DNA of 63,968 nt, the filler included, from Stramenopiles sp. TOSAG23-3 (lineage: Eukaryota): NCBI GenBank assembly GCA_900128585.1. It is 4 parts of 4 records of this genome, joined end to end, with 100 filler letters (N's around TTAATTAATTAA, not from the genome) between each part and the next. Parts side by side here need not be neighbours in the genome. Positions count along the whole stretch, not along the records: positions 1 to 16,277 come from LT642494.1; positions 16,378 to 32,636 come from LT642495.1; positions 32,737 to 48,991 come from LT642496.1; positions 49,092 to 63,968 come from LT642541.1. One strand, given 5' to 3'. The notes below the pieces were generated by a model. It did not search any database and was not told the origin of the DNA. It saw nothing but the letters and a program-made list of their open reading frames with translations. Below, piece by piece: positions 822 to 61,651 of this stretch; position 1 is the first letter of the stretch, and each line of letters starts with the position of its first letter. The translations under genes were made by a program, and so were the position numbers.

Positions 822-850
822 TAAAAACAAAATTAATGGCTGGTATTTAG
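822..850 (+). repeat. 3'-associated micro-element, degenerate copy
   Basis: TAAAAACAAAATTAATGGCTGGTATTTAG, between two convergent stop codons. Confidence 0.55.
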
Positions 851-947
851 GTGCTCTTATTTACAATTTATGTCCAGTAAGGTTACCTAACCCAATACGA
901 TGACTTTCTCCTTCCTCTCTTTTTAAAATTAATGAATTCTTTAGCTT

Positions 948-1838
948 TTAGCTAAAATCACCGCTACGGTGCTTTTTGATCACCACCGTTTTCAACGATT
1001 CGTACACGCTAAACTGTATGGCGGCGTTGGGCACACTCCGAAGCAGGTATGGGAGGGCACCGTGGTAAAATCTCCCGAGTCCTCCCTTTCTATATGTCGT
1101 TCGGTAGCAGTCTAGAAAGCTAGAGTAAACACGCTGTCCATGATGATCTCCTTGACTCCCTGAAATTTGCATAATTTTTCGCACAGTATCATTGGGGTAC
1201 ACAAAAACGCCGGCGGTCACCCCGGACAAGGCCCCATAAAACATTTTGCTTTGAACAGTCATTTCATTCGCTCCATTTTCAGAAAAATACCCATACACTC
1301 CAAACTTAATGCCCTCGTACGGCACAGCCCCTAAAATGGTCGGCCAACACCCACGGTACAAAGACTTATACCCGTTTTCCTTTATGGCCTCTCTCAAAAC
1401 ACCACCTAGGCCTATATCTCGCCCAGTGACCCCGGCCAACCTTGTCCGAGCAAAGTCCAGCGGGTACGTCAATATACACGCAGTGATGCCCGCGCACGCG
1501 CCTGACCCAAAAGCGAGAATTTTCGGGTCTGGGCCCTTAAACCGAAAAACTTGGCGCAGCAGATCCTTATATACATCATTGCAAGCAAAAAGAACACCTT
1601 TGGCCGGAAAAATACGCAAGCAATTCGTAAAGTTCCCTCGCCAAAACCCCTTTACTCCCTCGGCTTCCATAATCGCAGAAGCAGTTGCCCGTATACCTTT
1701 TTCACCCCCGCCAGTTTGTGCCAACACCCGGATTCTTTCCAAGGGAGACGTTGCTGTCTTCGCAACTGTGCCACCGAAACCGCCGAGCGGCAGCAGCATA
1801 ATCTTCTCAATTGTATCGGGCGCCCCAGGTCTCGGCAT
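948..1838 (-). CDS. Mitochondrial carrier family (SLC25) protein, probably CoA/adenine-nucleotide carrier type
   Basis: Three carrier repeats with Px[DE]xx[KR] signatures (PLERIR, PLDFAR, PNDTVR) and GFWRGN/LYRG/FYHG motifs; ATG at 1838. Confidence 0.9.
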   Translation of the reverse strand: MPRPGAPDTIEKIMLLPLGGFGGTVAKTATSPLERIRVLAQTGGGEKGIRATASAIMEAEGVKGFWRGNFTNCLRIFPAKGVLFACNDVYKDLLRQVFRFKGPDPKILAFGSGACAGITACILTYPLDFARTRLAGVTGRDIGLGGVLREAIKENGYKSLYRGCWPTILGAVPYEGIKFGVYGYFSENGANEMTVQSKMFYGALSGVTAGVFVYPNDTVRKIMQISGSQGDHHGQRVYSSFLDCYRTTYRKGGLGRFYHGALPYLLRSVPNAAIQFSVYESLKTVVIKKHRSGDFS

Positions 1839-2742
1839 GATCAATAACAAATTTCTTCACAGCAATGGCTGCAACGCAAAATAAAATATATGCAATACAA
1901 ACAGTCCTACCAAGAAGACACTAACGGAAGCAAGCCGCTTCAAATGTACTTCTTGACAAACCTATTGTTCACGAGAAATGTAAACCAGGGAAGGTATGGC
2001 AACTCTACTCAAATAGTCCATAGAACATTACCATATAGTTAGATCTTTATTTCAACCCATTCTTTCAATGCAAGAATGAATTGGACGAATACTTTTGTGT
2101 GAGCCTCCTCTGTGTCATTTATGACCACTCAATAAACCAATTTCAACAGATTTCATACTTAATATGTATACTAATTATTGAATTTACTATATATTTAAAA
2201 TTATTATACTTGTATTATTATTTCTTATATTAATATTTACCTATGTATATTATATGATTATACATTTTTATTGTACTTTATTTTTGGTGAATCAATCGAT
2301 TTTAATTTAGAGCTAAATAGCATAGCAGCTCTTTTAGATCTATGTTACGAGGATAATAAAATAACGTCCTTCTTCCGTCCTTCGATTCCTCCTTCTTCTT
2401 TTTTAAGAAACGACGACAGACGATATTAATTCTAAAAACTCAGTTGTATTTTAAATTATTTTTTTTTATGAATTATCATCTTCGTATAATTAATAATATT
2501 AATTACGACGAGGAGTGCTGCTGCTGCTCCAGCCGTTACATCATAAAATATGAGCGCGATATAATAATAATAATAATAAATATTATAATATTCATCACCA
2601 GTAAAAATGTTGTTTGTGCAGTACGAAGGTATAATTAAATTGGATGAAATTCGCGCGTGCTGTCGAGTAACAATTACAACGGAGAGTTTATTAGGTGTTG
2701 ACACATTACCCTAAAACAATTGTCAGGTTTTAGAACACAGAA

Positions 2743-9005: not shown

Positions 9006-9532
9006 GTCGCTGGTTCGTATTGTGCGATCCCGCAGCAAAATCGGTTTTTGCAAAACTAGAATTTTAAGCCAAGGTGTAATTCTTTTTAGAAAAACAATTC
9101 AATGTTCACGAAAGTTACATTCAACGTTTGCGCAGTTTTATCGTCGTCATTGCACGCACCCATGTTCCCTTCTTTTGGCAAGAAGGAAAACAATGTTTTT
9201 CTGATATTCGTATTTTATTACTACTTTTTCTTGTTGATGATGATGAGATGGAGGATAAATGTCTGAAACGGTAAATTAAAAAAAAAGAATGATTGCCAAG
9301 ATGATGTAATTAAGGAGTTATGAAAGAAACGAAGGAGTGATATAAAAATATAAGATAGAAACTAAAAGATTATTCTCATTTTTATAACATATTTTCCTTA
9401 CTTTAAATTAATATGTGAAGCCAACGAATCGACAAATGCTGTTGTGGATGTGTACTGCTACAAAGCATTTCCCCTATCAAATACAAGATAATTCGTTGTA
9501 GGTCGGATGAAGTAAATAAGTTCGCAATACAT

Positions 9533-9577
9533 TAATTTTAATTACTTAAATAACAGCCAATTTTCTTGATTTTTTAA
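9533..9577 (-). repeat. 3'-associated micro-element, perfect 22-mer core plus extension
   Basis: Reverse complement of CAAGAAAATTGGCTGTTATTTA at 9547-9568, extended by AGTAATTAAAATTA; about 35 bp after the VWA8 stop. Confidence 0.9.
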
Positions 9578-9608: not shown

Positions 9609-12600
9609 CTACTTCAAAATTGCTCTGGAAAATATGGTTTTGAAGAGAGCCGGCATTTCTTCATTGTTGTTGCACACATGTGCTCTGCCTGCTGGCATCC
9701 TCTTTTGCATCTCCAGCGCAACCTCCGGCTCCGCAATAAAAATCGCGTATGCGTTAACAGACTTGTCTTTCATTAGTTCATCGGCGAGAACTTCAGGGGT
9801 CACGCCATATATTTCAAGGTTGGCGTCAGATATCAAAAATACAAAATAATCATCGGCTTCCTCGCGACGGACAAATCGCATTGCCCGAATGGCGGCCCCA
9901 AGTGTGTTGTCCCCGCTGGCGCAAGATGCTGCATGATCGATCATGGTCTGGATGACAGCTAGCCTTTCGTTTCGATTAACGGGTGGCCTTCCCATTGGAA
10001 CTAGGCACAAATCATGGGTTTCACCGGAATGGCCAACGATTTCGTATTGGTACTTGTGGTCTAATCCAATTAGGGCCTCCATTAACATAACGACGGATGC
10101 ACACAAACGATCCAATCTTTGGTCTCCGTTAAAGTATGCCATAGAGCCACTCACGTCTACAACAAATGAAACACGCTTGGGAAGACGCTGAACCATCCTG
10201 GAGGCTTCTTTTTCTCCGCGCTTCTTGTAAACATTTTTCTCCCCAATGGCAAGGTCTATAAGTCGTCGATCATCAAGCTCACCAGACGTTTTCCCCCGCA
10301 GCCAGACCCTTTCCTTTTCATTTGCTTCTATGCTTTGCAAAACAACGCGAAGTTGGTTAATTTCACCTTCAACAGTTGCAAACAATTCGTCATATTTTTC
10401 TTCATCAACATTGTCCATATTTAGTTTTAACCGCTGCAACTCAGCAGTTTCGTTTGCTATTTTACGGGCTTTTTGGAGAATCTTTGATGCGCCAACTTTG
10501 GCTTCTGATATCAATTTCCCTCGTGTCCCGCGACCGTTCTCATTTCCATGACCCTTTCCCGTTCCCTTTCCGCGACCTTTCCCATTCCCACGGCCTTTTC
10601 CCTTCCCCCTTCCTCGACCACGCCCTTTTCCTGAACGACCTTTCTGCGTGCTGGAATCGCTTTCTTCCTCTGTGAACTCATCTCTGCTTAGTTCGGAGTC
10701 ACTGCCCTCCGAGAAAGCATCGTTTGGTTCACTTTTTTTGCCTTTTGAATCACTTTGTACGCGGCCGGATAGAGACGAAAACAACGTTTGCTGAACTGTT
10801 AGCTTGTCCAATCTGATTTCTAGCAAGCGAATGTGACCATCGCAGAAAAGCAGCGCTAATCGTCCGTCGGACGCTTCGCAACAAGCAATACAAGCAGGCA
10901 TTTCAAATTTTTTTGGAGGTGGAAGAGGGCTATTTGCTGTAACTTTCAATCCAACGTTTGCCAAGGAACCATTGATGCCAGTGTTACCACCCTGAATACC
11001 AGACGTGCCAATTCCTGGAATTTTTGTCAAAGCAATATTTCTGATGTGCCCAACGCCCAGTGAAACAATCTCCACCACAACTACACCATGCTCGACGGCC
11101 AAAGAGTTCGTTTTGATGTGCGAGTACACTTGGACTTTTGACTGTGAAGAAAGGTGCACACACGAAGTCGAACAAATACGAGAATCCTCGTCAATTTGTG
11201 GTTGCTCACCCACTGTGGTGGCTATAATCTCAAAAAAAGATATCTGCCGCTTATACCCCATCATTGTTGACCTACTGATGCTTGCTTTTTCTATTCCCAC
11301 AAAGTAGTTTGCGTAGCAAGTTGTGTTGGAAGACATGTGAATCATGCTATCAGGCGAAACACTGCCTTTAGAAGGGGCTGGGAGTTCTCGGAAAAAGTAA
11401 GGCTTGGAGAACCACTCCTTTTCTACCAGGGGCAGATCAACGGGCCACACGTTCGGCCCCAAATTCTGCAGACTCAAAAAAAATTCTTGTAAGGATTTTT
11501 TCCCCTGCTCTCCTCCGTATAACTCCACTTCATATATTATTTGGATCGCTCCATTGTATTGTTTGCTTATACAGTATAAAAATACAATGGACTTTTCTCC
11601 ACCCACAATGCGAACGGTTTGGATTCCAAAACCTTCTGGTAGGTCAAAATGACAGTGGGCCACGTTGTTCGTTTGAACGCAATCAACGAGTAAAATTTCT
11701 CTTTCACCCGCTGAGTATAAAATTACAACAGGCAGTTCGGCAGAGAGTATTCCCGCGAAATTAACATCCTGTTTTGAATTCGCTGAAGGCCGTGGGCAGG
11801 TGGAAAATATAATCTTTCCTTCCTTTGGCCAGCACTGTACAAGCACTTCCATCCGTTGGTCATACGTGACTAGCATGTTTTCGCCAGGAATTTCAGCCAT
11901 GACCATACCTTTCGAATATTCTGACCGCAAGTCCATGGTATCTCCCAACTTCAATGGAATCTCCCGCTTTAAACCTTGGTCTAACGAGTAAACATGAAGT
12001 TCCATCCGTGATGTCAAAACACAAAGGCACCCATCGACAGAAGCCATGGAGAGAAAATTACCCATCCACGAGCCTCTCAGCGGGTCCACCCCCTTTATCA
12101 AAACCCCTTCTCTGGTGACCATACCCAATCTCCAAAAGATATCTTCCTCTGAAAACCTGCGAGCTCTAGAAGAGGCATGTTTGAAAGCTTTCCATTCTGC
12201 GCCGGGCTCTCCAATTGTTTTTATACACTTCCCAGACTCTTCGGCTTCTTGAGCAGTAATGTCGCTAAATGAATTTTGAGAATGCTCGTGAATAGAAGAA
12301 AGGGTAACATCTGTTTTTATCACGCTAGCGTTTGTTCTCTGCCTTACGAACGTTCCCAATTCTTTCGGTTCCGGCAAAGTTTGCGCAGTTGAAATACCCG
12401 ATTTTCCCGAAGACGGCATATTTTTTACCCCCGAGCTATTGATCCCTAGGGGTATCCCGTGCCGTTGGAAAATGTCCTCCACAAATTTTCTTAGTTGAGA
12501 GTCGTAGTCGTCAAATGCAAATATGTTCTCCAGCACCGCTGTTACATGGTCTTCAGGATATTGGGCCAAATGTCTAACTACATTGGTTAATTCGCGGGTG

Positions 12601-15600
12601 GAATATGGATATGTAATTTGCCCAGAGTCAACAGCAGTTCTTAAGTCACGAAACGCAGAGGTAAGAATCTTAAGCAATTCGTCCGGAACATTTGGTGCAT
12701 ACTGCTTCAGCAGCATGATCTCAGATTTTTGGTCCGGGTTTTGGATTGCATGGCACGCGAAACAGTCTCCCATTTCTCGGAAAAAATCATTTCCCAAAAA
12801 GGGGTATCCAGGTCTATTCGCAAGCGCAATAACAAGAAACTCTGGATGGATTGGCTTGATGCTCGCTGCCTGGTTGAGCATAGGTGAGTCAGCATTGACA
12901 AATCGTCTTCCATCGGCCAACAAAATCTCTCCATCCTCGAGCAAAGCTTTCAAAATCACGACTACCTCGGTCGGCGCTTTATCAAATTCATCCACTACCA
13001 GCACGCGCCCATAAACCATCGCTTTAACCAATGGAGAATCTTCAAAAACGACTACACCCCTCCGCAGAGTTGGTGCTAGCGTTAAAGAGCCCACTGTGGT
13101 GTCTCTGTGTAGCTGAATATACTCGCGCTCACGCTGCAGTAACATCAACAACTTGTCTGCCATCTTGTTCTTCCCTACGCCTTGATTCCCCATCAGCAAA
13201 ATGTGTTCTTTTGCAATGACGTCTCTGAGCATATTTCGCAACACCAACTTTTGCTCAGGAATATCGAAGAACAGGGTGTACGGAACGAGGGCGATCTCTT
13301 TCGGTTGGGAAACGGCACAAGATACGTCTCCTATTTGAACCGACGGTGACGGCGAGGAAATGTCCGCCTCTACAATCGACATTTGGGCGGCAGCTTCGAC
13401 TTGTAAGTTCCTGCTCTTACCACGTAGCCCTTCTGTTTTCAGTATAGCACGGACTGCAGCCCTTTCTGACCGCGGCATAAATTCTGTCATGAGCGCACTT
13501 TCAAGCCCATTTCCAACATCTTCCAGTTGTTCTTCCAATCGCAGATTATAGTTGAACGAAACTCGCCTAGCAGCCCTCAAAATTTGCCTCAGGGACAAAG
13601 TGACGGCCTGGGAACTGTTCGCAGCACTTCGCTCCTCGGAGTTAGCGATGTCTCTGCGGGATTCAGGAGCAGCATCTATACTTGCAATTTCCCCTTCGTA
13701 ATATCGGGTCCAACCGCCTGCTTTAGCGGCAACCTTGCTCCCCACCTGGTATTCATTTACTGCCCCATTTAACAGCTTCATTTGTTCTAATCGAACCCCT
13801 TTTCGTACCTCACCGTCTAAGAAGCGCACAGTATATGTTGGAATACTTTCGTCTGTATCAATATTTTCAATATTTGCCGCCACTGGGCCTCCATCGACCC
13901 ACAACGGAGAGCTACTGTCATTGGCTGCTGCGAGCAGATTTTCACGGACGTTGACAAGTTTCACGATTATGGTGGGAGGGCAGTTCGGGACAGTTTTCGA
14001 AACAACATCATAAAATTTCGTCATTCTAGGTAACGAAAAGAAATGAAACAGCTGCATAACCTCATTCGACAGCCATGTCTTGCCGCGCCGCGAAGTTGGT
14101 ATACCCAGTCCCAATATACGAAACGATGGGTGAACCGGGTGCACATTTCGTAGCGTCAACTCGTTGACCGATACATTCATTACTTTTGTCAAATATTCGT
14201 ACCGGCGAGGAGAGATAAACCTCGTCCCGTCGTACAACGTGACCTCTCTATCTTGTATTAAGCGACTGAGGGCAGATATCGTGCCCGCAGACAGGCGGTG
14301 AAGCCCGTCAAGGACGCACAGACCACCGCGTTTCACTGCATGAGAGAGGGGCGTTGCCTCCCAAATGCTTTCCCCCCGAGAATTTGTGGAACGCCGCTGC
14401 AGTAAATCTCTGGCTGTCATGTCCTCGAACAAAAAGAGGGTTTCAATTTGAACGTATCCTAAAGCCGCCGCGAAGCGCTTGGAGACAAACGATTTCCCCT
14501 CTCCCCGTTGCCCTATTAAGCAAACGGAATTTCCAACCGCTGCCGATTGCACCATTTTAGAAACTAGAATATTGCATTCGTCTTGAATGAAATTGGGAAG
14601 CTTAGGTTCAAATAATCCACCTTCAGTCACCACCGTACTAGATCCAGTCTCTGAGGCAGAAAATTGAAGGACGGTTTTCCCGGCATCTGTTCGCTGCACA
14701 CTGCCAAGTCTATAGTGCACCGACGGGTTGCCCAACTTTATCAGCGAGGGCGACACGGAGCGGAGCACTTGGTTCACTAACGCTGCGGCCTCATCTTTCA
14801 GCAGGCCGCACGAGGGCGAAAACGGGAATATTCTATGCAATATGTCCGTAATAGGCGTCCTGGGAAATGCTTCTAGCAATTTTCCCGCTGAAATAATCGA
14901 CTGTTCGCATGGGTAACAGAGTGACGTAAAGGCCAATGTTTTCGCCTCAATTCCAGCCGTAGAGGCCTGGGAGTCTCCTAGGGCCCACAGAGCTTCGTAT
15001 ATGCTCAACAGTTCTTCCAGAACCCTGGCATTGACCGATAAGGAATAGTTGGTCCGCAAGGACAACAGGAGCGCTTCAGTATTTGCTCGACGGACGTGTC
15101 GCGCCTGGAAACGTGATCGTAGCGGTGGATCGAGCGGATTTCCCGGAAATGGGGGAGAGGGCACTCCAACCGCAATAACCCGAAATCTTTCATGGACTCG
15201 CACGAGCTTTAGCCGTTCCAGCTCGATACTCCCTCTCTGTTCTAAAATTTCATCATAACGCTTCGGCGCCACCAAAAATCGACCATCCTCCAGCTGCATT
15301 TCCCTATTTTCAAGCAAATTGTTTAGAACCGGCAAGACGTTTCGCTCTGCCTTTTCCAAGCCTTCCAACACCAACACTCGCCCGAAAATGGCAGCCCGGA
15401 CGACAGCTTGGTCAAACCATGCGACCGACACCCCATTTTCCGCTCCTACCCGCCGGAGTTCCCGCCTACATTTCAAGTCCCCCTCGCTCGTGTCGGCAGT
15501 CAAGGAAACAAACTCGCACTCTCTATTGGTTAGCTCACAAAAGCGAAACGCCAACCACCTCCGCATCGGAGAATGCGAGCCGATTAAAAATATATCTTGA

Positions 15601-15779
15601 TTTAAAGCGTCTTTTTGGACCATCCAACGAATGTGATCATAAGCCCAAGGCATTTTAAGAAGACTGCAATCGTTTTCATAACCGCCTGGCACAAGTTCCG
15701 GGAACGCCACCGCTTGCCCACCACTCAATGCCCTAGACACTTGTGACATACGACGCTCTCGCTTTTTTTGTGTAATCAT
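9609..15779 (-). CDS. VWA8: von Willebrand factor A domain-containing protein 8 (three AAA+ modules plus C-terminal VWA)
   Basis: HIRWMVQKDALNQDIFLIG, LEKAERNVLPVLNNLLENREMQLEDGRF, Walker A GQRGEGKS and GNQGVGKN, YPYSTRE, VWA MIDAS DVSGSM and FLISDANL. Confidence 0.95.
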   Translation of the reverse strand: MITQKKRERRMSQVSRALSGGQAVAFPELVPGGYENDCSLLKMPWAYDHIRWMVQKDALNQDIFLIGSHSPMRRWLAFRFCELTNRECEFVSLTADTSEGDLKCRRELRRVGAENGVSVAWFDQAVVRAAIFGRVLVLEGLEKAERNVLPVLNNLLENREMQLEDGRFLVAPKRYDEILEQRGSIELERLKLVRVHERFRVIAVGVPSPPFPGNPLDPPLRSRFQARHVRRANTEALLLSLRTNYSLSVNARVLEELLSIYEALWALGDSQASTAGIEAKTLAFTSLCYPCEQSIISAGKLLEAFPRTPITDILHRIFPFSPSCGLLKDEAAALVNQVLRSVSPSLIKLGNPSVHYRLGSVQRTDAGKTVLQFSASETGSSTVVTEGGLFEPKLPNFIQDECNILVSKMVQSAAVGNSVCLIGQRGEGKSFVSKRFAAALGYVQIETLFLFEDMTARDLLQRRSTNSRGESIWEATPLSHAVKRGGLCVLDGLHRLSAGTISALSRLIQDREVTLYDGTRFISPRRYEYLTKVMNVSVNELTLRNVHPVHPSFRILGLGIPTSRRGKTWLSNEVMQLFHFFSLPRMTKFYDVVSKTVPNCPPTIIVKLVNVRENLLAAANDSSSPLWVDGGPVAANIENIDTDESIPTYTVRFLDGEVRKGVRLEQMKLLNGAVNEYQVGSKVAAKAGGWTRYYEGEIASIDAAPESRRDIANSEERSAANSSQAVTLSLRQILRAARRVSFNYNLRLEEQLEDVGNGLESALMTEFMPRSERAAVRAILKTEGLRGKSRNLQVEAAAQMSIVEADISSPSPSVQIGDVSCAVSQPKEIALVPYTLFFDIPEQKLVLRNMLRDVIAKEHILLMGNQGVGKNKMADKLLMLLQREREYIQLHRDTTVGSLTLAPTLRRGVVVFEDSPLVKAMVYGRVLVVDEFDKAPTEVVVILKALLEDGEILLADGRRFVNADSPMLNQAASIKPIHPEFLVIALANRPGYPFLGNDFFREMGDCFACHAIQNPDQKSEIMLLKQYAPNVPDELLKILTSAFRDLRTAVDSGQITYPYSTRELTNVVRHLAQYPEDHVTAVLENIFAFDDYDSQLRKFVEDIFQRHGIPLGINSSGVKNMPSSGKSGISTAQTLPEPKELGTFVRQRTNASVIKTDVTLSSIHEHSQNSFSDITAQEAEESGKCIKTIGEPGAEWKAFKHASSRARRFSEEDIFWRLGMVTREGVLIKGVDPLRGSWMGNFLSMASVDGCLCVLTSRMELHVYSLDQGLKREIPLKLGDTMDLRSEYSKGMVMAEIPGENMLVTYDQRMEVLVQCWPKEGKIIFSTCPRPSANSKQDVNFAGILSAELPVVILYSAGEREILLVDCVQTNNVAHCHFDLPEGFGIQTVRIVGGEKSIVFLYCISKQYNGAIQIIYEVELYGGEQGKKSLQEFFLSLQNLGPNVWPVDLPLVEKEWFSKPYFFRELPAPSKGSVSPDSMIHMSSNTTCYANYFVGIEKASISRSTMMGYKRQISFFEIIATTVGEQPQIDEDSRICSTSCVHLSSQSKVQVYSHIKTNSLAVEHGVVVVEIVSLGVGHIRNIALTKIPGIGTSGIQGGNTGINGSLANVGLKVTANSPLPPPKKFEMPACIACCEASDGRLALLFCDGHIRLLEIRLDKLTVQQTLFSSLSGRVQSDSKGKKSEPNDAFSEGSDSELSRDEFTEEESDSSTQKGRSGKGRGRGRGKGKGRGNGKGRGKGTGKGHGNENGRGTRGKLISEAKVGASKILQKARKIANETAELQRLKLNMDNVDEEKYDELFATVEGEINQLRVVLQSIEANEKERVWLRGKTSGELDDRRLIDLAIGEKNVYKKRGEKEASRMVQRLPKRVSFVVDVSGSMAYFNGDQRLDRLCASVVMLMEALIGLDHKYQYEIVGHSGETHDLCLVPMGRPPVNRNERLAVIQTMIDHAASCASGDNTLGAAIRAMRFVRREEADDYFVFLISDANLEIYGVTPEVLADELMKDKSVNAYAIFIAEPEVALEMQKRMPAGRAHVCNNNEEMPALFKTIFSRAILK

Positions 15780-18317: not shown

Positions 18318-18600
18318 AGAAAGAAGGCAAAAAGGGCCATCGTCCTGAGCAACCCATCGGAGAATAATGAAGGCTTCGTTTCTGTCGCGGTTAAGGATCG
18401 CACAGGACCCTTTCAAGTCGCCAACAGCAAAAGTTGCCGGATATTTTTAAAGGCCAAACGTCGTGGAATCGAGCTAGTAAGGGTACCACTCTTTGTTTGT
18501 AATTTGGCGTGAAACGAGAGGTTCACGGCATCTACGCTTTTTAAGAACACATTTTTCATCCGCGGAGCAAGTTACAGAACACGGGAGAAAAGCAATACAA

Positions 18601-19071
18601 ATGGGAATTGTCGGTGCGGAGAAGCAGGGCAGTGATGCGATGAAAAATGTCGAAGATGGTATTGCCGATGCAAAAAAACAGGGCAGAAACACTGCTGAAA
18701 AAGTCAAAGAGACCATTGTCTCTACTGGCATAAACGGCAATCAGGCGGAAATCGCTGATTATGCGAAGGCTGCGAAGGACCCGAGAAAAGCCATTGACAG
18801 GAAATTTACGGGAAAGGAAGATGTTGTGGAACGAAGCGACCCGTTTGCTGAAGCGCGGGACTTTCTTGAGCGAGATTGGGAGGATTTTCGAGAAGCTGAA
18901 CAAGGTGATGATAAGAAAACCAAGTTTGTGGAGTTATTCATATCTGCCCCTCCCGAACTCACGCCAGGCTCCGCGATGCATCTGGACACGCCGTATGGGA
19001 TCCGTTCTATATTCGTTCCCCCAGTGGAAACGATGACGGACAACAGGATCATACTAAAGGTATACAAATAA
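18601..19071 (+). CDS. Hypothetical protein with C-terminal small beta-rich domain
   Basis: ORF 18493..19071, first ATG at 18601; C-terminus ISAPPELTPGSAMHLDTPYGIRSIFVPP. Confidence 0.55.
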   Translation: MGIVGAEKQGSDAMKNVEDGIADAKKQGRNTAEKVKETIVSTGINGNQAEIADYAKAAKDPRKAIDRKFTGKEDVVERSDPFAEARDFLERDWEDFREAEQGDDKKTKFVELFISAPPELTPGSAMHLDTPYGIRSIFVPPVETMTDNRIILKVYK

Positions 19072-19183: not shown

Positions 19184-19236
19184 TTTAAACAAGAAAATTG
19201 GCTGTTATTTAAGAAATTAAAATTTATCTTCCTCAT
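19184..19236 (+). repeat. 3'-associated micro-element, long copy
   Basis: Core at 19190-19211 followed by AGAAATTAAAATTTATCTTCCTCAT. Confidence 0.9.
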
Positions 19237-19389
19237 GTGTGGTACCGCGAAAATGAATCTGCCCCTTTTGTCCATATTTCTAATCAATATTTACTAGTCG
19301 TTCTACCTTGTCACTTAGTAATTCGTTTTTTTTTAATTTTAATTATCTTCCTTTTATGTTTTGTTCGCTGCGGGGGAACTGTCGTCGGC

Positions 19390-41883: not shown

Positions 41884-42507
41884 ATGCAGAAAGAAGCCGT
41901 CCAGGAAAACGAAGCACCCAAAAAGGCAACAGAAACCACCGTTCCCATGACATCTGGGGAAAGGGCATGCATAGTCGAAATGTGCAAGAGGGAACTGGAT
42001 GCCGCCATCCCGCTGGTCGTGGCCGCGGAGGCCGCGCTGGACAAGCTGCGCAAAAGAGACTTCCCAGAAGTCGGAAGGTGTAATCGCAAGCCGCCGAGTA
42101 TCGTCCACTCAGTGTGCCAGTGCGTGATCCACTTGCGGACGGGGCTTGACGATTCGATCGAGCTGAACCGGAAGACAGGGCGCGCCAAGGATATGAGTTG
42201 GAAACAATTCGAGCGAATGTACTTTCGTGTCGAGGCCTTCGTCTACGGGCTGAAGTCGTTCAAGAGTGAGATCGACGCTGGCAAGGTGCCGCAGTCCAAC
42301 GTCGATGCGGCGAAGAGCGCCATGAGGGCGATGGGCGACGACTTTTCGGCGGACGCGGTCCGTAAAAACGCCAAGGGGAGTGAGTGGGCGGCGCTGGCTG
42401 CCGCTCTGGTCGACTGGATGCGCGAAATGGTGTCGTACTACGACGTCATTGTTGCGGTTGAGGAGAAGAAGAAGGCGCTGGCCGGAGGCAAGGCGACGGG
42501 TGACTAA
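41884..42507 (+). CDS. Stand-alone dynein heavy-chain stalk-head (microtubule-binding domain) protein
   Basis: CKRELDAAIPLVVAAEAALDKLRKRDFPEV...KPP...SWK...AAALVDWMREMVSYYDVIVAVEEKKKAL matches the stalk/MTBD of axonemal dyneins. It has its own ATG and stop between AT-rich spacers. Confidence 0.8.
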   Translation: MQKEAVQENEAPKKATETTVPMTSGERACIVEMCKRELDAAIPLVVAAEAALDKLRKRDFPEVGRCNRKPPSIVHSVCQCVIHLRTGLDDSIELNRKTGRAKDMSWKQFERMYFRVEAFVYGLKSFKSEIDAGKVPQSNVDAAKSAMRAMGDDFSADAVRKNAKGSEWAALAAALVDWMREMVSYYDVIVAVEEKKKALAGGKATGD

Positions 42508-42569: not shown

Positions 42570-42630
42570 TCTGGCATGTTTAAACAAGAAAAATTTGGCT
42601 GTTATTTTTTATAGTAATCTGGCATGTTTA
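42570..42630 (+). mobile_element. 3'-associated micro-element with 13-bp flanking direct repeat (putative TSD)
   Basis: AACAAGAAAAATTTGGCTGTTATTTTTTATAGTAA between TCTGGCATGTTTA at 42570-42582 and 42618-42630. Confidence 0.65.
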
Positions 42631-49176: not shown

Positions 49177-49534
49177 TTTTTTTTATTTTTTTTGTCGTTA
49201 TATTTAACTCGTATATTATTTATTAATTTATATTTTTTTTATTAAATAGAAGAATGAATAATAATAATAATTAATATAATACTGCTGTAATAATATAATA
49301 ATAATTTTATTTTTTCTTCTTCTTCTTCTTCTTCTTTCTTTTTCTTCTTCCTCCAACCGAACCACCGCCGACGAAGAAAGAACGACGAAGAAAAAGAAGA
49401 CCTCCTCTCTAAGGCATAAATGAAAGAATGAATAGCCTGGTTTGTTTAGGAAGAGAATAATTGCCATTAAATTTGGAAGATTGGATCAAGGCGCAGGATT
49501 AATTGCGGAAAAGAACAGGAAGAAGTTTTCAGGG

Positions 49535-50710
49535 ATGGTTCAATTGGACTCGAACGCGAAAGCGTTTTGGCTTATGTACATGGCCTTCGTGTTGTCAAAC
49601 GCGATCTTCATAGACACGTACTACATATTTTATGACGGTTTGAAAGAGAGTCAGTATTGGCTTCATGGCATTGCGCTAGGAACTGCAAAAGAGTACGATC
49701 CGTTGTGGGCGGAGGGCGGCAAGGCGATGAAAGTTGCGGTTTTTCTTTCGCTGTTCGTCACAGTGTGGTTCGCGTTCTCCGTCGGTCCCACCTTAATAGT
49801 CGACAGTAGTTTTGGAAACTACAAGAGTACCACAAAGCTGGTTTCGTACCTTTATTGTGCGGGCAGCGCTATCTCTACGATCCTAGTATTTGCGCTCGAA
49901 TTCAAAGAGTACTGTGCAAATTCCGATCTGGCCCCATCTTTCTCCATGTGGACCTGGTTCACTTTCTCCCTGCAGATTGTCGTCGTAAAATGTTTGTGGG
50001 ACCACTTAAAGACCGGGGATAAAGCGGAACAAAAACTAGAAAAAATTTCCCGCAAAAAAAGTGGGGGGTTCAAAAAGTTTGCCAAGTCAAAGCTGAATGA
50101 TTTCACTGCAAGCAAGCGCTTTAAGGACAAGGTGAGGCATATATTTGACTCTGTCGACATTGACAAGAGTGGGTCCGTGGACGTTTCCGAAGTGTACTCC
50201 ATGGTGCTCTTGATTTACTTGTTCGTTGCCCAGTACACGGTTGTCAACGCAAAGACAATTCCAACCATCGAAGAAGTAAAAGAACTTTACGACAAGATGG
50301 ACAAAGATGGAAACGGCACGCTAGACTACGACGAATTCGAAGCGTTGGCGGTGCTAGAAGTGGAAGCCGTCTCTGCAAGAATCAGCACCCAGCTTGCCTG
50401 CCAGCTAGCCGCCTCCCCCTTCCTGGCGACATGTCTGGTGTCGTTCGTCTGTCAATACGTGCTTGTAGGCTCATTTCACGCGCTGTTAGTGGGCAATTTG
50501 CACCGTGCTTTGTTGGACTATGTCTTCACTAGAACCATTGCGATTACAATCCTGACGTGCGTTCTGAACATGACTGTCATGCCATTTCTTCTGCATTTAA
50601 TTGATCTCATTTGGTACGAATCTATCCGAAGCAAGGAGACCAGGTTAAAACTTGAAAAGAAGTCTTTGTTTGGAAAGTTTTTGGAAGCAGTAATTCACTA
50701 CTTCAACTAA
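49535..50710 (+). CDS. Multi-pass membrane protein with an EF-hand pair
   Basis: About four N-terminal TM segments, EF-hands DIDKSGSVDVSE and DKDGNGTLDYDE, two further hydrophobic segments; ATG at 49535. Confidence 0.8.
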   Translation: MVQLDSNAKAFWLMYMAFVLSNAIFIDTYYIFYDGLKESQYWLHGIALGTAKEYDPLWAEGGKAMKVAVFLSLFVTVWFAFSVGPTLIVDSSFGNYKSTTKLVSYLYCAGSAISTILVFALEFKEYCANSDLAPSFSMWTWFTFSLQIVVVKCLWDHLKTGDKAEQKLEKISRKKSGGFKKFAKSKLNDFTASKRFKDKVRHIFDSVDIDKSGSVDVSEVYSMVLLIYLFVAQYTVVNAKTIPTIEEVKELYDKMDKDGNGTLDYDEFEALAVLEVEAVSARISTQLACQLAASPFLATCLVSFVCQYVLVGSFHALLVGNLHRALLDYVFTRTIAITILTCVLNMTVMPFLLHLIDLIWYESIRSKETRLKLEKKSLFGKFLEAVIHYFN

Positions 50711-50940
50711 AGCGTGAAAGAGAATAGGCCAGGAAGAGGACATAGAGAGGTGTGTGGGTAATAATTGTGTACGTGCGTCGCGATGACGAGGAGCCACTTT
50801 ACCAATCGTTACACACAAATAAGAAATCTTAAATCAATATATATCTAAAACACACTTAAACAATACTATATAATTTGTTTTTTTCTAAAACACACTTTAT
50901 AATTTGTTTTCTAATTACGGGGAGAACTTCGTGAGACTTC

Positions 50941-50997
50941 TAATTTTTTCTGCCGCTAAATAACAGCCAATTTTCTTGATTTTTAATTTTTTCTGCC
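50941..50997 (-). mobile_element. 3'-associated micro-element with 14-bp flanking direct repeat (putative TSD)
   Basis: Core (reverse complement) at 50957-50978; TAATTTTTTCTGCC at 50941-50954 and 50984-50997. Confidence 0.65.
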
Positions 50998-51067: not shown

Positions 51068-52462
51068 CTAAAACGCCGTGCAGCCCTTTCTCCCCTCTTT
51101 TTTGCCTGCCGAACTTGCGTCCGCCACATCTTCAAAAAATGTTGGCATTGGTTCGACTTTAGGAGGAGAATCCTCTGCCAACAAGTTCCTTAGCGAACGT
51201 TTCATGTTGTTCAGGCTTTTGATCGGCATACGGCCCAGTGACGTAGTCAACTCGTTGGTCAAAAAGTGCCCAACTTGATCATCGGAGGATATCAGAAACT
51301 GTTGAAAATCGCCAGAGTTTTGAATGGTTCGATGCGATAGCGATTTCTGCAAAAAAGTCTGCAAGATCTGTTTGCGCTCCTGAAGGTGTTTAATATCAAA
51401 ATTGCGCTGAAAAGTTCTAGTTGGCAACTCCGGAAGACCAGCCACTATATCAGGAATATGATTGTGCAACGCCTGACTGAGGTTACGAAATGCTGTGACC
51501 CGACGGGTCACCAGCCATGACCGTGTAACTGGGCTCGAATCGCGTCTCCTATTTCCCGCGCTTCCGTCCTCCTTCTCGGTCCCATCTATGCGTGTGGTAA
51601 CCTGAATTTGGTACTGCACATGCTTATGGGGTTCTTCCACGACGATAGGACGAATAATTAGCGCTTCTATTGCACACCCAGCAAGTGGAGGCAGTCCACC
51701 CCGCCCAACGATTCTAAATGCCATTTCAAACTCCTTTTTTTCCGCTTCTGTCTCAGTGCAAATGTACAATTTCCGATTCTCTTTGATGGTTTTCCGGTCA
51801 GTGGCCACTTCTCTGACGGTTACGTGAAGGAGATGGTTCGATGGGAGAGCAGAAGAGCCGTGCAATTTCTTTGCATTCTTGCTCATGGTCGCTGGATTTT
51901 TATGCACACTAAGACAGGTAAGCCGTATCGATTCTATTAGCTTTCTGCCAAGCCGGCCCCCATCTTGGTATATTTCAAGCTTCAGCCCAGACAAGCGGAG
52001 GAATCTACGCCCCCATTTTCGCTGATCTATATTGTCTCTAAAGTGCACATACTTCTCTACGGTTATTGGTGAGGTCACTCCATCCACGGTGTGCTTCAAA
52101 AGCAGGTGGCGCGCTTCGGAAATCAAGTGCGTCTGTGCCATAATATGCAGCATGTGCATCCGTTTCCCCCAAGAGTGGCACACTTCTGAGTTTGGAAACG
52201 CCAATATCAGGGTTTTGTGGGCCGTCGAGAGCAGCAACGAAAACTCTCGGCCCACTTCGGCCAAGGCCTCTCCCGAACCCATTATATGGGTATGAATGGA
52301 TTCCAACTGAAGCGCCATGAACGGCGTCAAATGATTTTCAGTTTTATACATCAGCAAATACTTTTCCTCCAACACAAGATGGGCGTGAATCCAATACCTT
52401 GTAACATTGCACAAATACTCCGCGTCCGCGTGGAGAAAGACTTGGTTCGCAAGGGACGCCAT
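51068..52462 (-). CDS. PH-PH-PX domain protein with C-terminal CaaX
   Basis: PH-like segments (HLVLEEKYLLMYK...W; WGRRFLRLSGLKLEIY), PX (YQIQV...WLVTRRVTAFRNL...LPELP...LQERKQILQTFL); ends KKEGRKGCTAF. Confidence 0.8.
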   Translation of the reverse strand: MASLANQVFLHADAEYLCNVTRYWIHAHLVLEEKYLLMYKTENHLTPFMALQLESIHTHIMGSGEALAEVGREFSLLLSTAHKTLILAFPNSEVCHSWGKRMHMLHIMAQTHLISEARHLLLKHTVDGVTSPITVEKYVHFRDNIDQRKWGRRFLRLSGLKLEIYQDGGRLGRKLIESIRLTCLSVHKNPATMSKNAKKLHGSSALPSNHLLHVTVREVATDRKTIKENRKLYICTETEAEKKEFEMAFRIVGRGGLPPLAGCAIEALIIRPIVVEEPHKHVQYQIQVTTRIDGTEKEDGSAGNRRRDSSPVTRSWLVTRRVTAFRNLSQALHNHIPDIVAGLPELPTRTFQRNFDIKHLQERKQILQTFLQKSLSHRTIQNSGDFQQFLISSDDQVGHFLTNELTTSLGRMPIKSLNNMKRSLRNLLAEDSPPKVEPMPTFFEDVADASSAGKKEGRKGCTAF

Positions 52463-52996: not shown

Positions 52997-53020
52997 TAAA
53001 AACAAAAAATTGGCTGTTAT
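52997..53020 (+). repeat. 3'-associated micro-element, variant copy
   Basis: TAAAAACAAAAAATTGGCTGTTAT, about 70 bp from the SMYD stop codon. Confidence 0.75.
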
Positions 53021-53091: not shown

Positions 53092-54606
53092 CTACACCAT
53101 CAAGCTGCTTTGATAAGCTTGTATTTCAGCTACAATTTCCGCATCTTTCCCATGGGTCAACGACAAAATGTCAATGGCGACGCTCAGGTAGTGTTTTGCC
53201 ATTTCCAGCCCTCCAGGTTGTTGCTGTGCAATCAGCGAGCCCATCGTGTAAGCTTTCATTGCGATCATAGGGTGTTTGTAGCAGTATATCGACATATAAA
53301 CATCCATTGATTTATGTGCCATATTAAACGCAAGATCGTACTTGTGGACAAGAAGTGCGACGGTAAAAATGTTGTTCGTAACGATCAGGTTTTCCAAATT
53401 CAAGGGGTGAAGGTATCTGCTACGGACTGCTTGGACTTGTAGAAGCAGTTTCAGTTCTCGCTCCGCATCTTCTTCAAGCGCTGCTTCTTCCATGAGCTTT
53501 TTCGCAAGCATTAGCTCAAAATCACGCCGTTTGTTTGCTTTGGAAGCGTTCAACACCACCGGCTTGGACGAAATGTCTCCCACTAGGCACGCTTCTAGAT
53601 CCACTCTCGCGGTTAGTGCTTGTGCACGAAACAGCTTCAAATCCTTCTCCGGCACGCCCATGTGCAGGCGCGCGACAAGGACCTCTTCGACGAGCCCTGC
53701 AGTCATCCGCACAAGAATCGGCATTCCATCCTTCGGCGAGCACCGTGAGCAAGAACAAGTAAAGCCGTAGTCCGCCAGGAGCTTCGTCCGCCGGTCTACC
53801 TTGCTGCAGGCGGTGTCTAAGTACGGGTGGCAAAGCTCTTCGCCTGGTGCGACAGGACGACTCGTCCGAATCTGCTGCACTACGCAGTGGCGCGGACTTT
53901 TCTCGAAACGGTAGCTAACGACGCAGTTCGGCAGGCAGGAATGGTTTAAAATCGCACCATACGGGGACACACACGCCGCAACGGAAACCATCAACTTATC
54001 AGTAACGCTGAAATTGTTGCACCCAAACCGCTGCAAAAACTGCACAAGCTCGTCGGCGCTGAACGCGCCGTCACCTAGCCCCAGAAAATCTTTTGAGAAG
54101 CCCTGAATCCTTGAAACGATTGTTTGGTGGTGCGGGTTGTTAACCGAGTCGTGAAAACACATGTTTTGCACGTCCAAAAATGTTGGGGTCGCCACGTCCT
54201 TAGTCTCCCCACAATCGGCATTTCCTTTCCCTTGGTCAGTACTGTTTCCTCGTAGGGTTCTCCCTAGCAGTAGCAGGTCTGAAAGCACGGTGTTGTCTTT
54301 GACCGCTGCCCTGAGAGAACCGAGATGCGACACTTCCCAATCCTGAGCGGTACAATGGTGGTCTTTGCACCCCTGCGAGCAGTACACTACAGAGTTCGAC
54401 GCGTCCGAAAACCCGGGGGACTTTGTCTTCTTAAAGCAGTTAAAGCAGCGTTTGTCCCATAATTTGGGATGCAAGATGCTCGTGTACAATTTTGTACAGC
54501 AGACAATGGCCCCCCTTTCCAATTGTTCCGTAGCGACCAGCCCCCTTCCACGGTTCGGCCCGAGGTCTTCTACTTTGCAACTAAACTTGGAAAAATGTGA
54601 ATCCAT
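53092..54606 (-). CDS. SMYD-family SET/MYND lysine methyltransferase
   Basis: RGRGLVAT, partial MYND (CFNC...YCSQGC), LNHSCLPN, GEELCHPY, post-SET YGFTCSCSRC, TPR-like C-terminus (HPMIA...LTHG). Confidence 0.9.
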   Translation of the reverse strand: MDSHFSKFSCKVEDLGPNRGRGLVATEQLERGAIVCCTKLYTSILHPKLWDKRCFNCFKKTKSPGFSDASNSVVYCSQGCKDHHCTAQDWEVSHLGSLRAAVKDNTVLSDLLLLGRTLRGNSTDQGKGNADCGETKDVATPTFLDVQNMCFHDSVNNPHHQTIVSRIQGFSKDFLGLGDGAFSADELVQFLQRFGCNNFSVTDKLMVSVAACVSPYGAILNHSCLPNCVVSYRFEKSPRHCVVQQIRTSRPVAPGEELCHPYLDTACSKVDRRTKLLADYGFTCSCSRCSPKDGMPILVRMTAGLVEEVLVARLHMGVPEKDLKLFRAQALTARVDLEACLVGDISSKPVVLNASKANKRRDFELMLAKKLMEEAALEEDAERELKLLLQVQAVRSRYLHPLNLENLIVTNNIFTVALLVHKYDLAFNMAHKSMDVYMSIYCYKHPMIAMKAYTMGSLIAQQQPGGLEMAKHYLSVAIDILSLTHGKDAEIVAEIQAYQSSLMV

Positions 54607-55126: not shown

Positions 55127-55207
<81 letters not shown>

Positions 55208-59620: not shown

Positions 59621-60092
59621 AGGAAAGAAAAGCAAAAAGGAGAAAAAGGAAAAGAAACCGAAAAAGAAGAAATGGAAAAAACGCCCGTTCAATATTATTT
59701 TCCCCGTGTTTGAAGAGAAGAAAAAGGAACGGGGCGCATCAATGCAGAGCTGCAAAAGAAAATATATCCTGGACGATGTAATCTCCAAGGCCGTTGAATC
59801 GGGGGATTTCAAGCAATGCAACGCATTCTGTAAAATTATCGAACAAAATCCGTACGACGCGGCGATAAGTGCGTCGCTCCAAATAGCTATGGAAACGGTC
59901 ACCCAAGCAGAAGCACTGGAAAAGGATATAATGGCGCGAAAGCTTGGGGGAAAAGCCTTGGCGGCTCGACTTGCAGACAAGTTGGATGAGAAAAACTACA
60001 AGCAGGAGATAAAGGCTAAGTTAGAGCACGATTTGTTTCCATACGTTGGTCTGAAGCCTCCTTTGAAAGCAAGGGTAAGACGCCGGAAGTGA
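57813..60092 (+). CDS. Degenerate SelO-family (protein adenylyltransferase fold) protein with lysine-rich tracts
   Basis: EYLHSAAMRGLGIP, ANWHTQGYCHG, LDFGPGAFMDIYDP, FSNQP, LMEETKADYHN, KYIL, NPY, KPPL collinear with SelO; catalytic HGVxNTDN altered to HGGITPSC. Confidence 0.8.
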
Positions 60093-60211
60093 GTGGGGGT
60101 AATGTTTTAATTTGACAGTGTAGAGCTTTTTACGTTTAATTCTTAAGTTACGCATCGTCAATTTTATTCCAGAGCGATTTACAAAAATAGTAAATATTTC
60201 ATTTCGAACTT

Positions 60212-61069
60212 TTAGCACCCGCACGGAGCTTTGAAAGCAATCAATGTCAAATCTGCACAACTGTAGTCTCCAATCTCCAAATCGCGTTGATTTTCCTGAG
60301 AAATAATATTAGGATAAGCATTCAGTATTTTTTCCACTTCTTTGCATTCGTCTTCATCACAAATATTTTTATGCTCTTCCATCATGCGCCGAAATAATTC
60401 TTTCTTTTTGTTCCTCTGCAGAGTTTGTTGATTATACACAATGGTCATCTCTCTGTCTTCTTTTAATTCACCAGCCAGTGCTAATGCCTCGTTTCCCAGT
60501 ACTTTTGGACGCTTGCATAATTTGTAAAGCATGATAAGTAATACAACACCACCGACAGCAGCTGGGAACCAGCCATGAATTAGGAACTGACAGGTACCAA
60601 CTATAGCAAGAAATAATAGTGAATTTACGCAGCTTCCGTAACCTGCTAACTTCATCTTACGTATACTTTTTGCTGAAGGGTATTCTCGAAATTTGTCCAT
60701 TTTCAAATCACCTTCCACTGTTCCTTCATGTTTAGCGAATTGTTTCTTTATAGTCTGTTCGACCATTTCAGCTTGGGTCATTCCTGGTTTAAACTTTTTC
60801 ATACCCCAAAAGGAAAGCGACTTTTGTAGAGCTTGCTTCTGCCCCTTGTAAACAGGATCGTTCATTTTTTCCTCTTTTTTCTTTTGCAGTAAGCGCTTTG
60901 CTTCCTCAACTTTCAATACCCTCTGGCGATATTCTTCTTCCTCTGCAGCCTTTCTTGCCACGTTTGCAGCTTGTTCCCTTTCCTTCCACTCTTTTTGAAA
61001 TTTTGCTTCTTGCTCAGCATAGCTGGACTTAACGGTTCCCACCGTTATTTCGACGTCAGTTTTTTTCAT
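60212..61069 (-). CDS. Hypothetical coiled-coil protein with two TM helices, ending in CxC
   Basis: ORF 60212..61096, first ATG at 61069; hydrophobic hairpin SLLFLAIVGTCQFLIHGWFPAAVGGVVLLIMLY; ends APCGC. Confidence 0.7.
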   Translation of the reverse strand: MKKTDVEITVGTVKSSYAEQEAKFQKEWKEREQAANVARKAAEEEEYRQRVLKVEEAKRLLQKKKEEKMNDPVYKGQKQALQKSLSFWGMKKFKPGMTQAEMVEQTIKKQFAKHEGTVEGDLKMDKFREYPSAKSIRKMKLAGYGSCVNSLLFLAIVGTCQFLIHGWFPAAVGGVVLLIMLYKLCKRPKVLGNEALALAGELKEDREMTIVYNQQTLQRNKKKELFRRMMEEHKNICDEDECKEVEKILNAYPNIISQENQRDLEIGDYSCADLTLIAFKAPCGC

Positions 61070-61651
61070 GATCTCTTTTCTTTGTACAGGTGGCACGTTT
61101 TAAAATAGCCTTTTTTTAGAAAGAAACGAACTGTAATTGATGGTGTGAATTTTGAATAAAATAAATTTTGGTTTGTGATTGAATGTGGTGCGGATTTGTT
61201 TTGTTTGTTAGACGACTAACATAACTTTATGGTGCGGAAACTTGTCTTTTTTTGTTGGTGGTGGTTGGTTGTGTGGTTGTTGTTGTTGTTTTTTGTTGCT
61301 GTTGCTCTGCTGAATGGATATTATTCTATGCTCTCTCACTAATAATAAATAATCCGCCGTAATAATAATAATTTAAAAAAACAAACAAAAAATAATAAAT
61401 AAAAATGGAAGCTGTTATTTAGTCTCATCTCACCTCCTCGTATCACCTATATCCTGGTACATAAATAAGCTGATAAATATAACAACAGCCAATATTATAT
61501 TTTGTTTTTTATTATACTTAAATCAAATTTTACATATTACACCTCAACGCACTGGTTTCAATCGCCAGATGCACAACGTCACCTATTAAAACATCGCCGC
61601 CGCGACCACTGCCGCCAATGTTGCAGTTTTTCAAAAGATAGATCAGTTGTG

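Follow-up and report, generated by a model that had tools for sequence, protein, structure and literature searches.

Which kind of genetic element ends in the 22-nucleotide (nt) motif CAAGAAAATTGGCTGTTATTTA, and why do its copies lie just behind genes? The question is raised by a 63,968-nt stretch of DNA from Stramenopiles sp. TOSAG23-3 (the whole stretch that was analyzed, hereafter the window), in which the motif is dispersed as a short repeat. The window is gene-dense eukaryotic DNA with approximately 30 long open reading frames (ORFs) in 64 kb, i.e., approximately one ORF per 2 kb, separated by AT-rich spacers, and the Pfam domains among these ORFs are eukaryotic, including AAA_5/midasin-like, kinase plus WD40, GH47 mannosidase, SelO, and LCIB-like domains. 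Sequence of the window turns up in many marine metagenomes and metatranscriptomes (13 studies), and the source is therefore an uncultured marine eukaryote; its genome is compact. The motif is very probably the 3′ end of a family of LINE-like (long interspersed nuclear element; non-long-terminal-repeat) retrotransposons residing in this eukaryote.

The initial annotation of the window had reported five perfect copies of the 22-mer (Table 1), and all five are present, compared with zero expected by chance; 100 shuffles of the window gave no match, even at up to three mismatches. The three variants listed beside them (822–850, 42583–42617, and 52997–53020) belong to the same repeat family (D13) according to repeat clustering and alignment, and the 12-mer ATTGGCTGTTAT at up to one mismatch has eight matches in the window against 0.29 expected. 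Two weaker copies, also listed, are both doubtful: 61482–61493 retains the 12-mer with one mismatch, and 61401–61422 is only 66% like the reference copy. When ORFs of at least 120 amino acids (aa) are considered, the eight clear copies have their nearest stop 41–247 nt away, and none of the eight is within such an ORF, in agreement with the placement first described. Four of them (822, 28219, 42583, and 50957) are found between convergent ORFs, and the other four between tandem ORFs, in each case closer to a stop than to a start (stop-side versus other distance: 41 versus 494 nt at 9547, 119 versus 486 nt at 19190, 204 versus 327 nt at 39073, and 72 versus 535 nt at 52997); none lies between divergent ORFs.

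A wider census of the motif consisted of scans of prokaryote genome contigs, metagenome contigs, and viral contigs. The 22-mer had one match among the prokaryote contigs, in a 4.1-kb contig (L001) of a metagenome-assembled genome (MAG) labeled Dehalococcoidia, and none among the viral contigs. An internal 20-mer of the motif matched at least 120 metagenome contigs; counts of metagenome copies given below cover copies with an intact 20-mer among the matches listed. Altogether, at least 152 exact 20-mer matches were collected from 121 loci and the window, of which 148 or 149 remained after removal of copies with identical flanks, and merging of those with both flanks at least 90% alike yielded 127 clusters. 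No synteny was found between the window and the metagenome loci.

Alignment of window and metagenome copies supports the earlier description of one fixed and one ragged end. On the CAAG strand, nearly all copies among the matches listed start with (T)TAAAAAC-AAGAAAATTGG, and the common start of the oriented copies is (A)3-5CAAGAAAATTGGCTGTTATTTAAGTAATTAAA... At the far end, a copy either stops after 20–60 nt or runs into one of at least four longer subfamily sequences, which have AGTAATTAAA(A)TT in common and are divergent beyond; the last 35–50 nt are common and the 3′ untranslated regions (UTRs) different. In the sense of the element RNA, which is the reverse complement of the motif, the element ends in ...TAAATAACAGCCAATTTTCTTG followed by 3–5 T (U in RNA). 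The long window copies at 9547, 39073, and 19190 are of subfamilies A, B, and D, respectively, and subfamilies A and B both continue into the C-terminal coding sequence of a long ORF. Past position 39164, loose ends of metagenome contigs go on with GGTTGTCAATC..., which marks the truncation point of the window copy. The short copies are heavily 5′-truncated tails of larger elements, and the "tiny" element of 25–55 bp that had been proposed has to be given up: ORF-bearing elements of kilobase scale have the 22-mer as their invariant 3′ terminus. Summed contig depth, which is not a copy number, reaches 5223 and 3127 in two DNA metagenomes over 38900–39233, compared with approximately 5–8 in the single-copy flanks; over the 35-nt copy at 42583, it exceeds the flanks approximately 15–30-fold. 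The tail is also present in RNA contigs, and those of 2.4–2.7 kb end in the element, a host 3′ UTR and an element transcript being indistinguishable in them.

Three window copies (28219, 42583, and 50957) have direct repeats of unrelated sequence on both sides and are therefore insertions, not conserved host signals. In the larger sample, 124 copies had enough flank for a duplication test, in which the repeat had to abut the fixed end and recur within 270 nt. By the looser criterion (an exact repeat of at least 10 bp, or one of at least 13 bp containing one mismatch), 46 of the 124 copies have a direct repeat, compared with 9–15 of 124 in controls. By the stricter criterion (at least 13 bp with at most one mismatch), 37 copies are duplicated, 36 of them from metagenomes, whereas 4, 6, 3, 9, 11, and 7 of 124 (mean, 6.7) qualified in controls that combined the left flank of one locus with the right flank of a different locus. 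The control repeats were element-derived or AT-rich strings, whereas the real ones are mostly unique, e.g., ATCACCTATATA, CGTTTGAACTA, and TTGTAAGAAGTTAA. Measured exactly, the duplications have a median length of 12 bp, most of them being 7–16 bp, and the length of the insert between duplications forms a continuum from 19 to 259 nt, with 22 of the 46 inserts at most 33 nt long. Where the duplication meets the fixed end, its three final positions hold A or T in 35, 35, and 37 of the 37 copies. The target bases after the junction are A-rich, and the element side consists of 0–5 A and then CAAG, which indicates microhomology between the target and the U tail. Apart from the A or T at the nick, the 37 duplicated target sequences are mutually unrelated, and an R2-type site-specific element, which would have a single specific target, was rejected. 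The duplications, at three window copies and at 37 of 124 overall, bear out the mobility of the element that the initial annotation had considered. A library adapter or primer artifact was ruled out, as copies, each accompanied by a duplication of its own, were present in numerous independent metagenome assemblies.

Target-primed reverse transcription leaves a characteristic signature, and the copies show it: one end is fixed and the other ragged, the duplications vary in length, and there is A/U microhomology. The CAAG strand is therefore regarded as the first cDNA strand and its reverse complement as the element RNA; we infer an RNA intermediate. Briefly, AT-rich DNA would be nicked after (T/A)(T/A)(A/T), ahead of an A-rich stretch, and the A-rich 3′ end of the nicked strand would pair with the oligo-U tail of the element RNA. 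Reverse transcription would begin at this tail and mostly abort after 20–130 nt, a second nick approximately 12 bp away would produce the flanking duplication, and the outcome would be scattered tail-only stubs. Abortive target-primed reverse transcription would explain a puzzling dispersed micro-repeat by an ordinary mechanism.

The same anatomy bears on other identities. It is extremely improbable that the motif is a terminal inverted repeat of a DNA transposon or of a miniature inverted-repeat transposable element (MITE), the end of a Helitron, or a host signal such as a terminator, poly(A) signal, origin, or CCAAT box. The few loci with two inverted copies (L083 and L117), which would suit inverted termini, are nested insertions, each with its own duplication, and a copy on its own is conserved at one end only. 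Accordingly, a DNA transposon or MITE, which would require two inverted termini and a duplication of fixed length, was rejected. Helitrons lack target duplications, insert between A and T, and possess a 3′ hairpin with CTRR; here, duplications of 7–16 bp are present, neither fixed in length nor absent, and the fold predicted for the RNA of the 115-nt 3′ UTR showed no stable structure (z = +0.88), which speaks against a Helitron and against a host signal. The presence of AGCCAAT within the motif and the location of copies near gene ends would be compatible with a host signal, but unrelated target sequence would not be found duplicated on both sides of such a signal, nor would a host signal run on into a repeated ORF. 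Furthermore, the duplication-confirmed short copies show no orientation bias (14 versus 12), which argues against a strand-specific function such as that of a poly(A) signal, and an Rfam scan of the window matched no family. On these grounds, the conserved termination, origin, or CCAAT element offered as the other half of the original proposal is not supported.

It is also very unlikely that the short copies represent a separate, SINE-like (short interspersed nuclear element) non-autonomous retroposon borrowing the 3′ tail of the LINE. The subfamilies are indeed unrelated upstream of the common 35–50 nt, as in SINE/LINE pairs. By contrast, insert lengths are continuous from 19 nt upward with no fixed unit, subfamilies A and B run on into the C-terminal coding sequence of the ORF, and the window contains no head like that of transfer RNA (tRNA), 7SL, or 5S RNA and no other Rfam family; a tRNA scan of the window likewise found none. 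A SINE proper was rejected, as the window showed no RNA polymerase III-type head and the inserts no discrete unit length.

The tail is linked to a long ORF that precedes it. The L001 contig begins within a reading frame, 1191 aa of which are present, and the end of this frame lies 92 nt short of the element terminus in the RNA sense. A tblastn search with this ORF matched 14 loci including L001, of which 11 reach within the last 25 residues of the C-terminus and the starts vary (residues 501–1132); seven of the 14 have the exact 20-mer 68–320 nt downstream in the sense orientation, and the other seven are more diverged (35–59% identity) and have no exact 20-mer there. The ORF has no detectable similarity to known reverse transcriptases (RTs), and it is abundant in marine metagenomes, with relatives in 295 protein clusters at E ≤ 0.001 among 1.84 billion representative proteins; the 150 relatives listed of these 295 are all short (58–419 aa) and tile the query. 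A word-indexed protein search retrieved five relatives, including P0124 (1087 aa, 41% identical, extending approximately 95 residues further toward the N-terminus), in which FPDAKNAFNTLS, QGDPIGM, and AYADDLAI occur in this order. QGDPIGM and (Y/F)(A/V)DD are retained in all five proteins compared (L001, P0124, P0138, P0161, and P0226), and FPDAKNAF, QGDP, and xADD, in order, are what we take to be RT motifs A, B, and C, an assignment made by eye. Past these RT-like motifs, a Cys/His cluster followed by H-N and K..KY can be seen by eye in the L001 ORF. Judged from such motifs, the long ORF likely supplies the RT and the endonuclease of the element. Penelope-like elements are distinguished by a GIY-YIG endonuclease joined to the RT, and Pfam detected no GIY-YIG domain in the 1191-aa or the 1087-aa protein, both of which lack the N-terminal part. 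A protein search with residues 1–330 of P0124 returned P0124 itself only, a search for related loci with a single protein found nothing, exact and degenerate DNA patterns from the QGDP region matched L001 only, and a global alignment of 149 protein fragments (2439 columns, 4% column identity) was unusable.

Several results weigh against assigning the motif to a LINE-like retrotransposon. For the ORF and its relatives, Pfam (including RVT_1) gave no match; for the ORF, PADLOC and NCBIfam found nothing, PDB searches by sequence and by profile returned chance matches only (a proteasome subunit, E 1.1, and an IgA receptor, E 0.21), and hhalign against four Ty3/gypsy RT domains of the same MAG aligned the xADD stretch only, with a probability of 0.2%. 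No full-length element was recovered, and the ORF start or N-terminal part, where an APE domain would sit, is missing. Among the usable copies, 87 of 124 have no duplication of at least 13 bp, some of these being longer than 270 nt or nested, and a long-range search around the longer window copies (9547, 19190, and 39073) gave only low-complexity duplication candidates. Finally, none of the contigs over 38900–48900 joins across an element, i.e., neither an empty site nor a presence/absence polymorphism was found there.

Compared with known LINEs, which are target-primed and 5′-truncated as in L1, the present family agrees in several respects: copies are alike at the 3′ end and ragged at the 5′ end, target-site duplications vary in length (approximately 7–16 bp), the nick site is AT-rich, the nicked DNA end and the RNA tail share microhomology, a long ORF stops shortly before the 3′ end, and nested insertions occur. 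It differs from LINEs with a poly(A) tail in its short oligo-U run, such that target A, not T, would prime; furthermore, the typical insert is only 20–60 nt, the ORF is recognized by no RT or endonuclease profile, and the copies are confined to gene 3′ flanks. The R2-type LINEs with a restriction-like endonuclease (RLE), i.e., R2, R4, NeSL, and CRE, share with the L001 ORF a Cys/His cluster downstream of RT-like motifs, and the conservation of the extreme 3′ end across subfamilies fits recognition of the element's own 3′ UTR, as in this group. The endonuclease series of R2-type elements comprises CCHC, RH, PD, D/E, and K..KY (PMC4838377). With respect to that motif set, H-N, a ..DG.. / ..WDV.. 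pair, and K..KY follow the CCHC plus RLE order (PMC4838377), whereas RH, PD, and RG.W are not clear in the L001 ORF, and searches by sequence and by profile matched no R2 structure. R2 also uses one specific sequence, whereas the present family occurs at many loci, with a target that is AT-rich and loosely defined. The element is an undescribed LINE-like family with an ordinary mechanism and not a new kind of micro-element; its unusual traits are the oligo-U tail, a putative polymerase missed by every profile, and near-exclusive residence behind genes. The initial annotation had regarded a match to a known transposable-element terminus as evidence against its proposal, and the motif is indeed such a terminus, although of an element that is itself undescribed; four 15-mers of the motif had no match in the papers searched.

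A sister family (family 2) behaves like the family described above (family 1) despite its different tail. Another ORF in the same MAG shares 84% identity with P0124 across 340 residues and has the 3′ end ...GAGAGTCTTAAAACATACTATATAAT..T-run, and the reverse complement of this tail, AAAACAAATTATATAGTATG, recurs among the metagenome loci. The window contains five copies of the family-2 tail against zero expected, all in convergent spacers, and at least two of the five are stubs with 12-bp and 11-bp duplications. The spacers 28122–28382 and 50710–51068 hold three tail fragments each, with the two families mixed and partly nested.

The confinement of the copies to gene 3′ flanks is real and strong. 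ORFs of at least 200 aa served as the gene proxy, matches to the element ORF were removed, and 149 copies were classed, on contigs chosen for holding a copy, with crude ORF starts (first ATG) and introns ignored: 66 copies lie between convergent ORFs, 15 between tandem ORFs (14 of these nearer the stop), and one between divergent ORFs; where an ORF is present on one side, its 3′ end faces the copy in 50 cases and its 5′ end in four; two copies are inside an ORF, and 11 have no neighbor within 1.5 kb. The median distance from a copy to the nearest stop is 123 nt. Counted per cluster of look-alike flanks, 53 are convergent, 14 tandem, and one divergent, and the 30 short duplication-confirmed copies include 18 convergent, three tandem, and no divergent cases. 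The claim that the element sits only just 3′ of stop codons thus holds and extends well beyond the window. The accompanying claim of sense orientation to the upstream gene is correct for the window and weak in the larger sample (80 same versus 51 opposite). Regarding the two matches inside ORFs, that at L121 11096 is only 16 nt from the low-coordinate end of its ORF; L091 2211–2230, the sole exact 20-mer well inside a long ORF, has neither the AAAAAC lead-in nor the tail extension and is probably a chance match, given the size of the collection.

Two explanations of this confinement were weighed. The spacers free of copies on the same contigs comprise 27 convergent (11.8 kb), 73 tandem (58.4 kb), and 49 divergent (49.6 kb) spacers; AT content is alike across spacer classes (0.63–0.66), and convergent spacers are at most 2-fold richer in TTAAAA-like motifs. 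The supply of target motifs therefore does not explain the 3′ bias. It has an even chance of being correct that the confinement is passive, i.e., that integration into AT-rich DNA is near-random and purifying selection spares copies only in the least constrained DNA, behind genes. This is consistent with the loose target consensus, the equal orientation of the confirmed short copies noted above, the gene density of the genome (approximately one ORF per 2 kb), and the mostly very short surviving inserts, as expected if larger ones are purged. Selection accounts less readily for the divergent spacers, which hold one of 82 two-sided copies versus approximately 41% of the copy-free spacer DNA; stubs of 20–30 bp should often be tolerated in promoter spacers of 1 kb, and copies in tandem spacers are tightly clustered near stops.

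Alternatively, the integration machinery may be actively steered to RNA polymerase II (Pol II) terminators or 3′ nucleosome-free regions as a safe haven, possibly guided by a termination or 3′-processing factor or by a chromatin mark; this is a possible explanation, held with limited confidence. The ratios of 66/15/1 for convergent, tandem, and divergent spacers and of 50 versus 4 for one-sided copies, together with the short distance to the stop, favor targeting, and the bias remains after merging of look-alike flanks (53/14/1). It is also favored by the predominance of tandem (73) and divergent (49) over convergent (27) spacers among those free of copies and by the failure of motif supply to explain the bias. 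In tandem spacers, moreover, copies gather 5–30% of the way from the stop rather than across all non-promoter space, the counted copies all have an intact 20-mer and are probably young, and the family-2 tails outside family-1 spacers are both (2/2) in convergent spacers. However, a compact genome and a large population could produce the same pattern through selection against promoter insertions; with such crude ORF starts, the promoter side of tandem spacers is ill-defined, the contigs were selected for holding a copy, and the less biased family-2 test rests on n = 2.

Strongly non-random placement in gene-dense genomes is known from retrotransposons that use safe havens, i.e., TRE5 and TRE3 of Dictyostelium near tRNA genes, Ty1 and Ty3 of yeast upstream of Pol III genes, and Tf1 at Pol II promoters. 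The present family resembles these elements in this respect and differs in its favored place, which is the 3′ flank of genes that encode proteins and especially the space between convergent ones, and in that targeting and selection are candidate explanations only. If the 3′ bias reflects targeting, the family would be a retrotransposon with the 3′ ends of protein-coding genes as its safe haven and would provide a handle on terminator marks. The fuller proposal of a LINE lineage with a profile-invisible polymerase, oligo-U priming, and active steering to Pol II terminators, above all between convergent genes, is tentative and rather unlikely; if it were true, tail stubs of 20–130 nt would make up much of the DNA behind genes. 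Furthermore, in the annotation of compact protist genomes and single-cell assemblies, such stubs could pass for regulatory motifs.

Table 1. Tails of the two element families in the window, with their sequence evidence and neighboring ORFs.
Position	Strand	Feature	Sequence evidence	Setting
822..850	-	Degenerate family-1 tail	71% to reference; CAAG-type strand on +; no duplication found	Convergent ORFs 240..746(+) and 948..1850(-)
9512..9573	+	Family-1 tail, ~60 nt	Subfamily A type; exact 22-mer 9547-9568(-); apparent internal deletion; 5′ limit approximate; no clear duplication	41 nt beyond stop of 2056-aa AAA_5 ORF 9609..15779(-)
19187..19323	-	Family-1 tail, ~135 nt	Subfamily D type ...TTCCTCAT.. 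ACCGCGAAAATGAATC...; exact 22-mer 19190-19211(+); limits approximate; candidate low-complexity duplication CTTTTTTTTTAA / GTTTTTTTTTAA, 113 nt past core	119 nt beyond stop of ORF 18493..19071(+)
28206..28260	-	Family-1 stub 28222-28244 (23 nt)	Exact 22-mer 28219-28240(+); 16-bp duplications TGTTCTTTTAAAACAA at 28206-28221 and 28245-28260; inserted in A-run of older family-2 tail	Convergent ORFs 27709..28122(+) and 28382..30022(-)
28254..28309		Two degenerate family-2 fragments, 28254-28273 (+ match) and 28290-28309 (- match)	Three mismatches each to the 20-mer; 0 expected	Convergent spacer 28122-28382, alongside family-1 stub 28222-28244
38094..38136	-	Family-2 stub 38106-38124 (19 nt)	Exact 20-mer; 12-bp duplications CTTTTCAATAAA at 38094-38105 and 38125-38136	120-bp spacer between convergent ORFs ..38039(+) and 38159..(-)
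39068..39164	-	Family-1 tail, 97 nt	Subfamily B type ...TTCCTCATACCCTAATCCTAACTTGG...CATTGTT; exact 22-mer 39073-39094(+); no convincing duplication	204 nt beyond stop of LCIB-like ORF 39298..41031(-)
42570..42630	-	Family-1 stub 42583-42617 (35 nt, slightly diverged)	13-bp duplications TCTGGCATGTTTA at 42570-42582 and 42618-42630	Convergent spacer, 76 nt beyond stop of ORF 41884..42507(+)
50845..50910	+	Two family-2 tails: older copy 50891-50910, with 29-nt stub 50856-50884 inserted in it	Stub with 11-bp duplications GTGTGTTTTAG at 50845-50855 and 50885-50895	
50941..50997	+	Family-1 stub 50955-50983 (29 nt)	Exact 22-mer 50957-50978(-); 14-bp duplications GGCAGAAAAAATTA at 50941-50954 and 50984-50997	Convergent ORFs 49442..50710(+) and 51068..52462(-)
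52997..53020	-	Short family-1 tail (TAAAAACAAAAAATTGGCTGTTAT)	No duplication found	72 nt beyond stop of SET-domain ORF 53092..54606(-)
61401..61496		Two doubtful decayed fragments, 61401-61422 and 61482-61496	Weak evidence	156-230 nt beyond stop of GH47 ORF 61652..63592(-)

Further observations concern the window and the MAG that contains L001. Repeat content in the window differs by spacer kind, with microsatellites in 5′-5′ spacers and retrotransposon tails in 3′ spacers; long CT/TTTC-type microsatellites occupy divergent (5′-5′) spacers at 16116–16277, 48786–48991, 49092–49200, and 55003–55210. The three joins between records (16278–16377, 32637–32736, and 48992–49091) are identical 100-base fillers (44 N + TTAATTAATTAA + 44 N), 16,359 and 16,355 bases apart, a spacing judged odd for natural assembly gaps, and each is flanked by the CT-rich microsatellite of a divergent (promoter-side) spacer. 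Within the tandem spacer 34028–34942, a segment of approximately 500 bp (34240–34751) is 81–82% identical to parts of the metagenome contigs L083 and L085 and represents another repeated or conserved sequence.

Just past the element 3′ end in L001 (3741–4101, minus-strand view), a large inverted repeat with arms of approximately 150 nt (GTGTGTGAACTTTTTTTTAATTAAAAAACTAGCAGGGAGTTAGTGTTACA... and its complement) may be a hairpin-forming element or a MITE. In the same MAG (G001), five further loci (L130–L134) contain long eukaryotic retrotransposon frames. Four of these are Ty3/gypsy-type polyproteins with protease, RT, and RNase H where the frame reaches, the two longest adding integrase and a chromodomain, and the remaining one, a frame of 2055 aa, combines RT and RNase H with a C-5 DNA methyltransferase (GC content, 0.595). 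G001 therefore holds eukaryotic repeat contigs, probably from more than one organism, and this public "Dehalococcoidia" MAG is a bin of eukaryotic transposon contigs.

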